From NCBI RefSeq assembly GCF_045037415.1, contig NZ_CP173438.1: DNA of 64,000 nucleotides. One strand, written 5' to 3'. Source of the DNA: Escherichia coli. Lineage in GTDB: Bacteria > Pseudomonadota > Gammaproteobacteria > Enterobacterales > Enterobacteriaceae. Below the pieces are notes generated by a model that worked only from the letters and a program-made list of their open reading frames with translations, was not told where the DNA came from and did not search any database. The translations under genes were made by a program, and so were the position numbers. This document shows positions 16,601 to 29,101 of this stretch, piece after piece (position 1 is the stretch's first letter; each line of letters opens with the position of its first letter).

Positions 16601-16819
16601 TCAAAACAGTGAAAATCGTCCGAGTATACCTTGTACAGCGGTCAAGGTTAACCGGCGATTGAGTACCGAAATCAGAAAGAAGTGGCTTTTCATTGCTATG
16701 GCGCAAATCATGGGAAGAAACTGACCGCCTACTGCAATTTTTCTCGCGGAAAAGCTGTATTCACACCCCGCAAGCTGGTAGAATCCTGCGCCATCACTAC
16801 GTAACGAGTGCCGGCACAT
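16601..16819 (-). CDS. yaaY: Uncharacterised small protein YaaY, 72 aa
   Basis: Same size and position (between rpsT and ribF) as K-12 yaaY; no functional signal visible. Confidence 0.5.
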   Translation of the reverse strand: MCRHSLRSDGAGFYQLAGCEYSFSARKIAVGGQFLPMICAIAMKSHFFLISVLNRRLTLTAVQGILGRFSLF

Positions 16820-16900
16820 TAACGGCGCTTATTTGCACAAATCCATTGACAAAAGAAGGCTAAAAGGGCATATTCCTCGGCCTTTGAATTGTCCATATAG

Positions 16901-17185
<285 letters not shown>

Positions 17186-23437: not shown

Positions 23438-24697
23438 TTAAATTGTTCCATGCTCTAGTTTTTTATTCCACAGATGTTTGAGGATATCTAATGTAGAAAC
23501 GACATTCGCAGGAGACATTCGGTTCAATGATATAAGGAAAGGATGGTTCTCCACAAAGTGGATAAAACGCGTCGCACTGTTCAATGTTGCATGCCGCATC
23601 TCGCGGACTTTCTTACTGCCAGTGAGATTGCATACAGCCATTGAATAATTGCGGTTAGAAAATGCACGCCAGACATTATTTCGTACCCCACCACTAAGGA
23701 ATAATCGCGGCGGAAAATCAATGGTGGCGGGTGCCACACCGCGCTCTTTGACAAAGGAAATATGGCAGCGACCTTGATGAATATGCTGCAAATTAGCCAT
23801 CAGGCAGCCGCCCAATATAAAGCATTCGTGATCAAGGTAATGCTGAACGTTGTTGGAATGCTCATCGGTCAGTATTCTGACCAGTTCAAAATGACGATAT
23901 GCCGGAAGAACCGGTTTTACCAACATTCCCGGATCGTTTTGATGTAAAACTGCCGGGCCGTAATCAATATCAAACAAGGTATCCCGCCGCATAGTAAGTA
24001 ACTCTTTGCGCTGGACATGATGTGCCAGCGTCCCTGGAGACATACGCTCTTCATAGTTCGATGTGTATTGATAATGTTGCTCTACGGCAGATGGGGAGTA
24101 ATTGGTTGAGATGGCAACCACCCTGCCGCTTTGTTCTTCTGCGGTAACAAGAGCATAAAGAGAGTTATTGCTACCATTATACTTGACGCGAAAAGCGCGG
24201 GTACTCAGGGTAATATCAGAAGCTGGGAAACACTGTCGACTTTCTTTATAGTTTGCTTCACGCGCTAATTTTAACAGTTCACGGCTAAGTCCAGTGCTGT
24301 TAAGAAGTAATGACTTTCTGATATCCGCAAGTGCCTCCCCTTGCTCAATCATCAATGCTAACTGGGCTCCTCGTGGTGTGGTAATTACATGTTCCAGAGT
24401 GATAAATGTTTTCTCACAATGATGGCAATACATTCTTCTCTGGCCTTGTGCAGAATATCCATATTTTTTGAGGGACGTGCCTCCGCAAGTTGAACATTGG
24501 CAAATCAAACCTCTCCAGGAGTGATTCACAATATTACGATAAATATTAAGCGACTGTTCAGATATCACTGGAAACAAGTAACCACATTCACGGCATAAAA
24601 TATTTTTACCCTGTGCGACATAATCCTGGCTATTCAGCAACCCCAGGTTTTTACATCCTGGTGTTTTGCAACAATCAACATTTACGTTGGTAAACAT
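23438..24697 (-). CDS. Cysteine-rich hypothetical protein (tandem CxxC zinc-ribbon-like N-terminus, then a helix-turn-helix-like segment and a ~300 aa domain of unknown function)
   Basis: Cys pairs at C12/C17, C37/C40, C68-C70-C73, C93/C96; likely start is the ATG at 24697 with an agggag SD (the ORF track uses the GTG at 24703); no radical-SAM CX3CX2C motif; AT-rich gene. Confidence 0.6.
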   Translation of the reverse strand: MFTNVNVDCCKTPGCKNLGLLNSQDYVAQGKNILCRECGYLFPVISEQSLNIYRNIVNHSWRGLICQCSTCGGTSLKKYGYSAQGQRRMYCHHCEKTFITLEHVITTPRGAQLALMIEQGEALADIRKSLLLNSTGLSRELLKLAREANYKESRQCFPASDITLSTRAFRVKYNGSNNSLYALVTAEEQSGRVVAISTNYSPSAVEQHYQYTSNYEERMSPGTLAHHVQRKELLTMRRDTLFDIDYGPAVLHQNDPGMLVKPVLPAYRHFELVRILTDEHSNNVQHYLDHECFILGGCLMANLQHIHQGRCHISFVKERGVAPATIDFPPRLFLSGGVRNNVWRAFSNRNYSMAVCNLTGSKKVREMRHATLNSATRFIHFVENHPFLISLNRMSPANVVSTLDILKHLWNKKLEHGTI

Positions 24698-24825
24698 ATC
24701 CACTCCCTGCGAATAGCCGTATCTTGATATTGTTCAACGCGAAAAGAACCTGATTCAATGCGTAGCACTGAATCAGGCGGGCATAGCCCTAAATGGCATA
24801 CATTACATTTATTATGATTATCAGG

Positions 24826-26319
24826 TTAGCCCCAGGTCACCGCTTCTGGTTTATCACCTCTGGCTTTCATTAGAGAATCATTATCAATATCAGTTTTATA
24901 TTTTAAAAACTTACCATACATCTGTTTTTCAATATCTGGTTTTTTACCGATCAGATTAAGTGTTTCATAACGATCAGATTTCAGATTGTAGAGATATTTC
25001 GGTTTATTATTGCGATCGATAATCATCTTCCAGTCACCATCACGGATCGCCCATTCATCGGTTGGATCATCCTGGAATGGCATATCAATCCCGAAAATTA
25101 ATGGCTTTTCGCGTTTCAATGCTTTTTGCTCAAGAACAGGAACCAGCGATTCACCATCGAAAGTACGGTCTGTAGGTAATTTGAAGTTCATCATTTTCGC
25201 TAAAGTAGGCATCCAGTCCAGACCATAAACGGGTGTATCTGAAACCATTCCCTGTGGTAGATGTTTACCATATTTAATAATGGCTGGAACACGAATTCCG
25301 CCTTCCCAAAGGTTATCCTTGCGACCGCGTAATCCATCCGTTTCCCCTGCCAAATTCAGCTCATACACTTTGCGCGCTTCACGCGTTACCGGACCGTTAT
25401 CACTGGTAAAAATAACGATTGTGTTATCTTCTTCACCCACAGCTTTGATTTTATCCAGCACTTTTCCAACCTGTGCATCCAGATAGCTGATATTGGCATA
25501 ATATTCCCCCACACCACGCCAGGGTTTGTCTGCCCAGTCGCCATAAAATAAATCAGGATGCTGCTTCTGATACGCGCTCATATATTGTGAGTACATATCG
25601 AGGTATTTTTTGGGCGAAGCCAGGGGGCTATGCACTTCGGTAAAAGCAACATAGAGGAAGAAAGGCTTGCTGTCCTTTTTGTTATCCAGCCAGTTGACGA
25701 CTTCCGAACTGACATACTCACCGCTCATTTTATCGGCTCGTGGAGTGGGTTGCCCGTTACGTAGCCAGCCTGTCGGGTAAACCATGCCATAACGCGGGCG
25801 TTCTTTAGCGTTATCCAGCGTGGCGTCGGTAACAAAGCCCGCCGTATTAACCAGTGAGTAATCAAAGCCCATATCTTGTGCTTGTGGCTGATCGGTGCGA
25901 TCGCTGCCTGCATTCAGATGCAGCTTACCCATCATTGCCGTGTCGTACCCTTGCGCTTTGAGTAGATTAGCAATCGTGAGTTCGTTACGCCCTAAGGCAA
26001 CATCTTTGCCTGAAGGAATCCATGAGCGAATTCCAGTACGAAATGGCATCCGGCCGGTTAATAGCCCTGCGCGTGAAGGTGAACTTAAAGGAGCGGGGGC
26101 ATAGTAGTCAGTAAATTTGACCCCTTCCTGGGCAAGCCTGTCGATATTAGGTGTTTTAACGATCTGATGACCATATGTTGCTAAATCGCCATAACCTAAA
26201 TCATCCGCCATAATAATGACTAAATTAGGTTGTTTAGCCTCTGCGGCTAAGGCAGGACTAAAAGCATTCCCTGTGCAAACTGCAAGGCCGATCAAACTGG
26301 CCATTAACGTTTTCTGCAT
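24826..26319 (-). CDS. Periplasmic Ser-type sulfatase (arylsulfatase family), 497 aa
   Basis: Signal peptide MQKTLMASLIGLAVCTGNAFSPALAAEA; sulfatase signature S79-S-P-S-R-AGLL-TGR where the formylglycine position is Ser (codon AGT on the minus strand, plus-strand 26083..26085); metal-binding DD at IIMADDLGYGD. Confidence 0.85.
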   Translation of the reverse strand: MQKTLMASLIGLAVCTGNAFSPALAAEAKQPNLVIIMADDLGYGDLATYGHQIVKTPNIDRLAQEGVKFTDYYAPAPLSSPSRAGLLTGRMPFRTGIRSWIPSGKDVALGRNELTIANLLKAQGYDTAMMGKLHLNAGSDRTDQPQAQDMGFDYSLVNTAGFVTDATLDNAKERPRYGMVYPTGWLRNGQPTPRADKMSGEYVSSEVVNWLDNKKDSKPFFLYVAFTEVHSPLASPKKYLDMYSQYMSAYQKQHPDLFYGDWADKPWRGVGEYYANISYLDAQVGKVLDKIKAVGEEDNTIVIFTSDNGPVTREARKVYELNLAGETDGLRGRKDNLWEGGIRVPAIIKYGKHLPQGMVSDTPVYGLDWMPTLAKMMNFKLPTDRTFDGESLVPVLEQKALKREKPLIFGIDMPFQDDPTDEWAIRDGDWKMIIDRNNKPKYLYNLKSDRYETLNLIGKKPDIEKQMYGKFLKYKTDIDNDSLMKARGDKPEAVTWG

Positions 26320-26339
26320 AATTATTCCCTGATAAAAAA

Positions 26340-27101
26340 TTAGAAATCATAACCAAGCATATAAATCATTTGATCGCCAAAGCCATCGTAGCCCAGCTTA
26401 TTATCGAAATAACGCCACGTCACACTGGCTTTCCAGCGAGGATAGAACTTCCAGGCAATAGTTAAACCGCCATTTAACCCGTTCCGGCCAAATTGCTGCT
26501 CCGTGTAAGCATCGTTCCTGTCCAGTTCTATTTCATTCCAGTTAGATAAAACAAATTTTTCGTCAAATAACGTAAATGGTAATACTGCTGTCCAGCCAAC
26601 AACATAACCATTCCAACCATTCGTTTGACCATATTTAGCTGATACGTAGTCACCAGATTGATTATGTAATCCAATATACGGTTTAAAAAAGCCCCACTCG
26701 CCGTTCCAGCCGAGGTAACCGAATCCATAAAACATGTCCAGATCGTCACCCCATGAGTTATCCCATTGGCCATAAATTTTGCCAAAGAATGTCATATCAG
26801 AGTCAAAGAGTCTGACATGCGTCATTACTGAAACCGTATGATTTCGCCCTGCTACAGCATGATTGAGTACATTACTTTCATAAAATGAGTAAAATTCTGC
26901 TTCTTTAAAATTTACCCCAAAATCCGCAGTCACTTTCCATACTTCACCACGGTGAGTGTTTACAAATCCACTATTCCAGTCTGCATAACCCGCATTTATT
27001 GAACCAAAGGTTCCTTTATATTCTAATGAAGAATATGCAGGAAAATGATAGATAGCTGTTATCAGGGTACACGCAATAAGAAGTCGTCTTTTGGCAGACA
27101 T
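26340..27101 (-). CDS. Outer-membrane beta-barrel channel, Tsx/OmpK-like, 253 aa
   Basis: Signal peptide; aromatic-rich alternating pattern; C-terminal ...MLGYDF ending in Phe; general resemblance to the Tsx nucleoside channel family (from memory, not a computed alignment). Confidence 0.6.
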   Translation of the reverse strand: MSAKRRLLIACTLITAIYHFPAYSSLEYKGTFGSINAGYADWNSGFVNTHRGEVWKVTADFGVNFKEAEFYSFYESNVLNHAVAGRNHTVSVMTHVRLFDSDMTFFGKIYGQWDNSWGDDLDMFYGFGYLGWNGEWGFFKPYIGLHNQSGDYVSAKYGQTNGWNGYVVGWTAVLPFTLFDEKFVLSNWNEIELDRNDAYTEQQFGRNGLNGGLTIAWKFYPRWKASVTWRYFDNKLGYDGFGDQMIYMLGYDF

Positions 27102-27611
27102 ATAATATGTTCTCCATTCATTGTTTTTATGATTCCATAGGAATTAATACACCAGACAATTCATTTTTATTAAGAATGACCAGGCCAGTATATTTAAAGA
27201 TGACTATCGAAGCGTGATGAAGATCGCAGATTACTTTTGCGAACGGGCGGAGGGATATCGTGTTTCAGAAAATGTGTCTGTTTTAAATATCACCCTTTGA
27301 TTTATAGGCATTTTTCATGATGAACTTAGCATTGGCTGCTGAACGTATTTCTTTGTCTCTCTATAGTATTACACTAACCTTTAATAATTAATTTCCTTTA
27401 GCCATTCACTTTTGATAGAGGAAAACACCTTTTTTGTGAATCCCTGGATATATTTAAGTTAAATAAATTGATGTATTGAAATATTATTCCGCAAAAATGC
27501 GAGGCGTCTTCAGAAAAAGAATTGATAAAACAGAAGTGAATTAAAAGCGCAGTATAATAGCGGCGGGTGCTTGAGGCTGTCTGTCTCAGGCATTGGCTGA
27601 ACGGCAGATAG

Positions 27612-27666
27612 AGAAAAGCCCCGAGTGATATTTTACCATCAACCCGAGGCCCCCTATATGCAGAAC
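27612..27666 (-). ncRNA. sokC: Predicted Sok-type antisense RNA of the hokC/mokC type I toxin-antitoxin locus
   Basis: Position inferred from the conserved hok/sok architecture (antisense RNA overlapping the mok start); no independent promoter or terminator was verified. Confidence 0.3.
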
Positions 27667-27867
27667 ACATGTAGAGTGCCTCTTACTGACCGAAAGGTCA
27701 AGGAGAAGAGAGCAATGAAGCAGCATAAGGCGATGATTGTCGCCCTGATCGTCATCTGTATCACCGCCGTAGTGGCGGCGCTGGTAACGAGAAAAGACCT
27801 CTGTGAGGTTCACATCCGAACTGGCCAGACGGAGGTTGCTGTTTTCACGGCTTACGAATCCGAGTAA
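27658..27867 (+). CDS. mokC: Mok-type leader reading frame overlapping hokC, 69 aa
   Basis: Frame M-QNTCRVPLTDRKVKEKRA... running into hokC; same 210-nt length as K-12 mokC. Confidence 0.55.
   Translation: MQNTCRVPLTDRKVKEKRAMKQHKAMIVALIVICITAVVAALVTRKDLCEVHIRTGQTEVAVFTAYESE
27715..27867 (+). CDS. hokC: Hok-family membrane toxin, 50 aa
   Basis: MKQHKAMIVALIVICITAVVAALVTRKDLCEVHIRTGQTEVAVFTAYESE, the Hok/Gef toxin sequence. Confidence 0.88.
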   Translation: MKQHKAMIVALIVICITAVVAALVTRKDLCEVHIRTGQTEVAVFTAYESE

Positions 27868-27941
27868 GAGCAACGGCGGGGAGTGATCCCCGCCACTTTA
27901 CAGGTGCTCGCATATCTTCAACGCACCCTTTTTTTTACCTG

Positions 27942-27966
27942 GCCTGCCCACGGGCAGGCTTTTGGG
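27942..27966 (+). terminator. Putative intrinsic terminator after hokC
   Basis: gcctgcc-cacg-ggcaggc hairpin followed by tttt. Confidence 0.45.
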
Positions 27967-27970
27967 GAGG

Positions 27971-29101
27971 TTAGCGAGTCAGGTCGTCGAAAAACTTCTT
28001 CACACCATCAAAGAAGCTCTTTGAGCGCGGGCTGTTGTGCTCGCCGGTTGGGCCACCAAAGCTTTCTTGCAGCTCTTGCAGCAGCTGTTTCTGCTTCTCG
28101 TTCAGGCCTACCGGTGTTTCGACGACAACGCGGCACAGCAAATCACCCTGTGCGCCGCCGCGGACAGACTTGACGCCTTTACCACGCATACGGAACAGCT
28201 TACCGGTCTGGGTTTCGCCAGGAACTTTCAGTTTAACGCGACCATCAAGGGTCGGCACTTCGATTTCGCCGCCCAGCGCCGCCATAGCGAAGTTGATCGG
28301 GACTTCGCAATACAGGTTGTTGCCTTCACGCTCGAAAATCGGGTGCTGTTTAACCTGAACCTGAACGTACAGGTCGCCTGCCGGTGCGCCGTGTTCGCCC
28401 GCTTCACCTTCGCCCGCAAGACGGATGCGGTCTCCAGTGTCCACCCCTGCCGGGATTTTAACGGACAGCGTTTTGCTGCGCTCAACACGACCATGACCAT
28501 GACATTTGTTGCACGGATCTTTGATCAGCGTACCGCGGCCCTGACAGTGTGGACAGGTCTGCTGCACGGCAAAGAAACCCTGGCGCATCTGCACCTGGCC
28601 AGAACCATGACAGGTCGGACAGGTCTGCGGCTGTGTACCTGGTTTTGCACCGCTACCGTGGCAAACGTCACACTCTTCCAGAGTCGGAATGCGGATCTCT
28701 TTGGTCACGCCACGTACAGCTTCTTCGAGGGTGAGCTCCATGTTATAGCGTAAATCAGCACCGCGCGCCGCACGTTGACGACCACGTCCGCCGCCAAAAA
28801 TATCGCCGAAAACGTCACCAAAAATATCGCTGAAGTCTGCGCCGCCGCCAAAACCGCCGCCGCCCATGCCGCCTTGCTCAAACGCAGCATGACCATACTG
28901 ATCGTATGCCGCACGTTTTTGCGAGTCGGTCAGAACTTCATAAGCTTCCTTGATCTCTTTAAATTTCGCCTCGGCCTCTTTGTCACCCTGGTTACGGTCC
29001 GGGTGGTATTTCATGGCCAGGCGTTTGTAGGCCTTTTTGATTTCACGCTCTTCCGCTGTTTTGGAAACGCCTAAAATCTCGTAATAATCTTGCTTAGCCA
29101 T
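27971..29101 (-). CDS. dnaJ: Hsp40 co-chaperone DnaJ, 376 aa
   Basis: [37 protein letters not shown] (J domain, HPD), Gly/Phe-rich region, four CxxCxGxG zinc-finger repeats; the ORF-track start at 29131 is an upstream extension. Confidence 0.96.

Follow-up and report, generated by a model that had tools for sequence, protein, structure and literature searches.

Among chromosomal type I toxin-antitoxin loci the hokC/sokC pair of Escherichia coli is a textbook example, and its occurrence free of any insertion sequence in contig NZ_CP173438.1 (assembly GCF_045037415.1) raises the question whether its coding and RNA elements are all in place, where the locus begins and ends, and whether it could act as a toxin-antitoxin system. 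The locus was analysed in a stretch of 64,000 nucleotides of that contig (the window). A sequence-only reading had placed an intact hok toxin locus at 27102-27867, had expected a Sok-like antisense RNA over the mok start, and had supposed that the locus may be functional here without the IS186 thought to inactivate it in K-12.

No coding or RNA element is missing from the locus, its predicted pairings change in the expected way, it is conserved, and no insertion occupies the IS186 site. The region is very probably the chromosomal hokC (gef)/mokC/sokC type I toxin-antitoxin locus in its uninterrupted form, expected to follow the hok/sok paradigm; homology to hok/sok of R1 and to the K-12 locus leads us to predict its transcription starts, 3' processing, SokC action and toxicity. 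It is an already known system in its commonest form, and the import of the analysis lies mainly in correct annotation.

Coding frames and genomic setting

The gene order in this part of the window is nhaR, nhaA, a three-gene islet, hokC, dnaJ and dnaK. The hokC gene (27715-27867, plus strand), with the Shine-Dalgarno (SD) sequence AGGAG at 27701-27705, encodes a 50-aa Hok/Gef membrane toxin. Its product matches the Pfam profile HOK_GEF (PF01848) with 84.2 bits (cut-off 22, E=4.6e-24), which places it in the Hok/Gef family, whose members are small peptides of ~50 aa with an N-terminal transmembrane helix and conserved Cys. The overlapping mokC frame (27658-27867, plus strand; 69 codons) starts upstream of hokC with an SD sequence of its own, GAGG at 27646-27649, 8 nt 5' of the ATG at 27658, and uses the same stop codon as hokC. 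The two genes are in frame, mokC adding an N-terminal extension of 19 codons, as annotated in K-12 (mokC 16751..16960, hokC 16751..16903). The intact 50-aa Hok and the overlapping mok frame described from the sequence could thus both be confirmed, and the K-12 annotation of hokC, mokC and sokC can be transferred to the window base for base.

The region 27102-27970 is 100% identical to that of E. coli SK1144 and of many other genomes, and at least a part of it corresponding to hokC was matched in 5425 of the 5426 complete E. coli genomes. The hokC product carries the RefSeq accession WP_000809168.1, common to the IS-free strain SK1144 and the IS-carrying strain CP53. In the RefSeq (PGAP) annotation the 50-aa hokC coding sequence is named 'mokC', and both the 69-codon frame and sokC are left unannotated.

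The hok mRNA and its antisense RNA

A perfect -10 hexamer TATAAT (27553-27558, plus strand), read from the sequence and kept in K-12, O157 and E. albertii, marks the putative hokC/mokC promoter. It is placed 6 nt 5' of the point where a match to the Rfam family RF01794 begins, from which the transcription start was predicted at ~27565. No -35 hexamer with at least three of six consensus matches was found for it in a looser scan, and a strict consensus scan called no promoter at this position. The RF01794 match covers 27565-27717 with 116.4 bits (gathering score 59, E=3.8e-27) over the full length of the model (1-157), running from the translational activator element tac, GGGUGCUUGAGG, to the AUG of hok. 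The family is named 'sok antitoxin' and matches the strand of the hok mRNA; since the match extends on that strand from tac to the hok AUG, the family models the hok leader.

The full-length hokC mRNA is predicted to comprise ~400 nt (27565-27964, plus strand), with its two ends paired with each other. When folded with ViennaRNA it reached a minimum free energy (MFE) of -168.5 kcal/mol (z=-6.44), and none of 100 shuffled sequences folded as well. At the 3' side the mRNA would end at a terminator (27941-27964, plus strand) deduced from the folds, a hairpin at 27941-27960 followed by UUUU; it was not called in the consensus scan because its tail has only four T. The transcript end at 27964 is 7 nt before the dnaJ stop (dnaJ, on the minus strand, ends at 27971), and the functional unit extends from ~27553 to 27964, that is up to 7 nt from dnaJ. 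The terminator hairpin itself stands 10 nt from the dnaJ stop and, on the dnaJ strand, is followed by an A tract and not by a U tract. In IS-free strains dnaKJ transcripts may read into the hokC 3' UTR and the fold-back inhibition element as antisense RNA.

Three folding states were predicted, and together they correspond to the published hok pathway (PMC9841398, PMC1635323). In the nascent transcript the first 32-51 nt form a metastable 12-bp hairpin (-17.4 kcal/mol) in which 27566-27577 pairs with 27583-27594, so that tac (27565-27576, plus strand) has its first partner at 27583-27594 on the same strand. In the full-length mRNA the partner of tac is the fold-back inhibition element fbi, CUUCAACGCACCC (27916-27928, plus strand), the helix consisting of 6 bp, a bulge and a further 6 bp. 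The upstream complementary box ucb, AAGCCCCGAG (27616-27625, plus strand), an anti-SD element found paired in both of the longer forms, here binds with 27618-27625 to the mok SD region 27643-27650. Long-range tac/fbi closure and the masking of the mok SD by ucb, which are hallmarks of hok mRNAs, are thus both seen in the MFE folds. In the truncated mRNA, for which the RNA was trimmed to 27898-27903, ucb pairs through 27616-27622 with tac; the mok SD (27646-27650) is now paired with the downstream complementary box dcb (27678-27682, plus strand), a pairing also contained in the Rfam consensus structure. Only in this form does the Sok-target hairpin sokT appear (27654-27674, plus strand; a 7-nt loop CAGAACA at 27661-27667). 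The MFE fold of the truncated mRNA gives the same helices as the conserved 5' leader structure, namely the tac stem, the Sok-target hairpin and the SD/dcb stem. Trimming from the 3' end is predicted, by analogy with R1, to stop at an 8-bp stem-loop (27875-27894, plus strand), and the trimmed hokC mRNA is predicted to be 334 nt long. The 3' hairpin, fbi and the terminator all lie at 27875-27964, and a locus ending at 27867, as first delimited, misses them.

By itself, the tac/fbi pairing in the window exceeds chance only slightly and not significantly: 18 of 300 shuffled 3' UTRs do as well. A per-sequence shuffle test is too weak for a helix of 13 nt, and we relied instead on the conserved position of the element, on the folds of homologues and on one compensatory change. 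The homologues were plasmid and phage-plasmid loci of ~75% identity, aligned over the whole mRNA. The length-dependent switch came out the same in seven loci folded independently (the window, O157 and five plasmid or phage-plasmid homologues): in long transcripts the 5' end of the homologues found its partner 360-385 nt downstream, and in transcripts of 330-340 nt it found a local one. The single compensatory change, in homologue L010, combines U4 to C in tac with A to G in fbi. In 20 of 22 homologues the best partner of tac lay at nt 349-375, in a YCYUCAAYGCACCC-like box with the same bulged geometry or small departures from it at most; this sample is biased, as it includes sequences from a genome-wide search whose pattern fixed the tac sequence. 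The fold-back elements, which the sequence-only reading had wished to see compared with functional hok/sok loci, are therefore intact in the window and are predicted to go through the same switch, with no sign of the disruption that would speak against a working locus.

Homology to the K-12 ncRNA sokC (16952..17010) places a 59-nt SokC antisense RNA at 27608-27666 on the minus strand. It is identical to K-12 sokC in 57 of 59 nt, the differences lying at 27652 and 27662, and it is predicted to fold into a single-stranded 5' tail, a long hairpin and a U-rich tail (-23.1 kcal/mol, z=-3.9). Its putative promoter (27673-27701, minus strand) combines a -35 hexamer TTGACC (27701 to 27696), a 17-nt spacer and a -10 hexamer CACTCT (27678 to 27673), with the SokC start G at 27666, 6 nt beyond the -10 hexamer. 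The -10 hexamer fits the consensus poorly, and the promoter went uncalled in the strict consensus scan; K-12, O157 and E. albertii have both hexamers unchanged, and a Sok promoter is thus not absent from the locus. As judged from the sequence, the locus therefore appears to encode in cis a Sok RNA with its own promoter that overlaps the mok initiation region, in agreement with the antisense RNA anticipated over the mok start.

Put together, these elements would work as follows. A promoter relying on its -10 hexamer would start the mRNA near 27565, and the local metastable hairpin would hold tac at the 5' end of the nascent RNA. The finished transcript of ~400 nt would be closed by tac/fbi pairing, with ucb masking the mok SD, and would remain untranslated and unbound by Sok. 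Slow 3' exonucleolytic trimming to the hairpin at 27875-27894 would then remove fbi and allow the 5' end to refold, with tac paired to ucb, the mok SD paired to dcb and the Sok-target hairpin formed. SokC (27666 to 27608) would bind by its 5' tail and block translation of mok and hence of hok, and the duplex would be degraded; once SokC was depleted, MokC and HokC would be made and HokC would depolarise the inner membrane.

The Sok-target loop is complementary to the SokC 5' tail, and one of the two SokC differences falls within it. The loop reads CAGAACA here and CUGAACA in K-12 and O157, and without the U it does not contain the U-turn motif YUNR, which the plasmid homologues keep at this place as CUAG, CUUA or CUCA. 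The same substitution at 27662 makes mokC codon 2 CAG (Gln) in the window and CTG (Leu) in K-12, the Gln2 allele being the one by which YUNR is lost. Among 5426 complete E. coli genomes the allele without U was found in 1902 and that with U in 3477, and the former is shared by E. albertii and a third Escherichia species. Rapid binding of Sok in R1 has been reported to hinge on YUNR; the motif is an accessory kinetic feature that does not define membership in the family, and the loop allele lacking it is a common polymorphism.

Insertion site, conservation and activity

The 103 bp between the hokC stop and the dnaJ stop are uninterrupted and align with the K-12 sequence from which IS186A has been removed, so that the absence of an IS noted from the sequence is confirmed. 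The 3' hairpin contains the empty IS186 target, GGGG at 27878-81, AGTGAT, and CCCC at 27888-91; this hairpin form, GGGG-N6-CCCC, we take to be the preferred target of IS186. In K-12 IS186A sits inside the same hairpin, flanked by a 10-bp duplication that corresponds to 27880-27889 of the window, and it detaches fbi and the terminator from the gene. The K-12 IS186 has been reported to lie 22 bp after the reading frame (bioRxiv 10.1101/2020.03.04.975888).

With a 171-nt query spanning the insertion site, 3814 of 5425 complete E. coli genomes (70%) showed no interruption there, which makes the IS-free state the rule; an IS occupies the same 3' hairpin in ~30% of them. IS-free hokC alleles had been described in 1999, according to the summary of Pedersen & Gerdes 1999 given in bioRxiv 10.1101/2025.08.07.668861. 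IS421 interrupts the same hairpin in hok homologues of phage-plasmids (plasmids L008 and L009), and the GGGG-N6-CCCC 3' hairpin of hok loci is thus a recurrent target of IS186 and IS421. Strain H106 carries an additional IS150 at ~27640, in the hok leader and sokC.

Conservation was assessed against E. albertii NBRC 107761, in which the islet, hokC and dnaJ are arranged as in the window. The hokC RNA block (27553-27970) is 96-99% identical between the two, and the spacer 68-76%. None of the 50 third codon positions of hokC differ, compared with 47 of 386 in dnaJ, 56 of 252 in the channel gene and 83 of 288 in the sulfatase gene; in these neighbouring genes 12-29% of the third positions differ. 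As far as sequence comparison can tell, this suggests purifying selection at the RNA level, or else recent exchange, and the fact that so little of the RNA differs between E. coli and E. albertii argues for selection on the chromosomal hokC.

What such a locus does in the cell has been described in different ways. In the summary of Pedersen & Gerdes 1999 given in bioRxiv 10.1101/2025.08.07.668861, the IS-free hokC of ECOR24 shows neither post-segregational killing nor activation by rifampicin; Faridani et al., by contrast, describe the ECOR loci as active (PMC1635323). The HokC coding sequence is toxic on overexpression (bioRxiv 10.1101/2025.08.07.668861). In a CRISPRi screen the knock-down of sokC was strongly deleterious even in K-12 (bioRxiv 10.1101/2020.03.04.975888), which suggests that the K-12 locus, once relieved of sokC, has kept its toxicity in spite of the IS. 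For HokB, a homologue, a Cys made by TadA editing has been reported to be important for toxicity, and HokC has a Tyr at the position of the edited Cys. The codon of this Tyr47 (27853-27856) stands in the UACG context that is the TadA A-to-I editing motif, and its editing would give Cys; ~9% editing has been reported for K-12 hokC Tyr47 (PMC12214031).

The strongest alternative to a working locus is that hokC is an intact but phenotypically silent relic, transcribed and processed, from which too little HokC is made for post-segregational killing or stress activation. The weak promoter consensus, the missing YUNR motif, the low degree of Tyr47 editing in K-12 and the tolerance of an IS in the locus by about three genomes in ten would all agree with such a relic. 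A decaying relic would however not be expected to keep its RNA block, in comparison with E. albertii, far better conserved than synonymous positions in the adjoining genes, and both the strongly deleterious effect of sokC knock-down in K-12 and the toxicity of overexpressed HokC speak against it, so that we regard it as a possible but rather unlikely state of the locus. For the uninterrupted hokC/mokC/sokC locus, the supposition that it may be functional without the IS is compatible with its intact control elements; it is not new and was put too strongly, as the IS-free state is that of the majority and ECOR24 is reported to show no post-segregational killing.

The conservation of the block could also be due to a small cassette having lately been exchanged horizontally or recombined between Escherichia lineages, instead of to purifying selection on a working RNA. 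Hok loci are mobile, being found on plasmids and phage-plasmids, and the sequences at the islet junctions, only 87-90% identical to O157, suggest past recombination in the region. The conserved block nevertheless coincides with the functional unit from promoter to terminator (~27491-27970), its place in the chromosome is shared by E. coli, E. albertii and genomes of two other Escherichia species, and both alleles at 27662 are widespread; exchange therefore seems to us improbable as the source of the conservation, and selection on the hokC RNA the better account of it. A far more speculative extension, to which we give hardly any credence, is that the CAG allele slows SokC binding, rendering the uninterrupted hokC more easily triggered than the allele of K-12 and O157, that dnaKJ read-through into fbi and the 3' hairpin links activation to heat shock, and that the near-invariance of the RNA reflects selection for regulated killing or dormancy.

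The spacer and the channel-sulfatase islet

On its 5' side hokC is divergent from a channel-sulfatase module across a spacer which the sequence-only reading had given as 555 bp of AT-rich DNA. Measured between the start codons of the channel gene (27101, minus strand) and mokC, it comprises 556 bp (27102-27657) with 36.2% GC, the window having 51.2%, and the description holds. The hok promoter, tac, the metastable hairpin, ucb and the mok SD are found in it, as had been supposed for the hok/sok control elements in general; the Sok promoter lies inside mokC (27673-27701) and fbi and the terminator lie 3' of hokC, and these elements are thus outside the spacer.

The spacer is moreover of two origins. 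The window has the islet (23448-27446; 4.0 kb, 42.6% GC) in place of 72 bp that lie between nhaA and hokC in O157, and with the islet junction, mapped against the islet-free O157, at 27446, the 345 bp at 27102-27446 (33.6% GC) are islet DNA and only ~118 bp of shared sequence remain 5' of the hokC mRNA start. This islet-borne part is the presumed regulatory region of the divergent channel-sulfatase operon and lies outside the hokC locus. The strict scan found no promoter for the channel operon, and the looser scan gave only weak AT-rich matches, by which the operon's promoter could not be placed.

Three genes make up the islet: a Tsx/OmpK-like channel gene (26340-27101, minus strand), a sulfatase gene (24826-26319) and a gene for a 419-aa hypothetical protein (23438-24697) with a weak match to an IS1-type zinc ribbon. 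Of 5426 E. coli genomes 933 have the islet, as does E. albertii, and it is therefore an old presence/absence polymorphism. The flanks at both of its junctions are unusually diverged. In the E. albertii type strain the channel homologue has 758 nt compared with 759, and 118 of the 253 residues in its translation are different, which suggests that the gene is a frameshifted pseudogene.

Within the remaining part of the spacer, the stretch 27493-27514, AAAAATGCGAGGCGTCTTCAG, is relatively GC-rich and lies 50-75 bp 5' of the hokC start; it is invariant in the window, K-12 and O157 amid diverged AT-rich DNA, and E. albertii differs from it at one base. No open reading frame of note was found in the spacer, a repeat search of it returned only short families at chance level, and an Rfam search over 26000-29000 at E<=1 gave the hok leader and one noise match, rpsL_pseudo (E=0.63). 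That something further and so far undescribed is contained in the AT-rich spacer, for instance a small RNA, a small open reading frame or an operator array common to hokC and the sulfatase operon, is suggested by its length and by the invariance of the GC-rich stretch between E. coli haplotypes, and is made very unlikely by the outcome of these searches and by the mere 68% identity of the islet-borne part to E. albertii.

Comparison with known hok loci

The nearest relative of the locus is that of K-12 (hokC b4412, mokC b0018, sokC b4413), which has the same position between dnaJ and nhaA and encodes an identical HokC. The hok -10 hexamer, tac, ucb, the SD, dcb and the Sok promoter hexamers are the same in both, and SokC differs at the two positions given above. 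The K-12 locus differs in carrying IS186A in the 3' hairpin, empty in the window, and in having Leu instead of Gln as MokC residue 2; the window in turn has the 4-kb channel-sulfatase islet 118 bp 5' of the mRNA start, where K-12 has the nhaA promoter region. The hokC locus of ECOR24 resembles that of the window in being IS-free and in having fbi, and its transcript of ~330 nt (PMC3562002) matches the predicted 334-nt form. The hokC locus of the AIEC strain NRG857c, which has been described as intact, without an IS and 'close to GI' (PMC7232551), is likewise uninterrupted.

The hok/sok (parB) system of R1 and the plasmid homologues of the pnd and srnB/flm types share with the window locus the same architecture and the same predicted folding pathway. 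The hok mRNA of R1 has ~400 nt, as predicted here, and in both loci Sok overlaps the mok start. Unlike the R1-type loci, the locus of the window is chromosomal, has mokC in frame with hokC and has a Sok-target loop without YUNR, and its nucleotide identity to the plasmid homologues is ~75% or less. Post-segregational killing further sets the R1-type loci apart, none having been demonstrated for chromosomal hokC.
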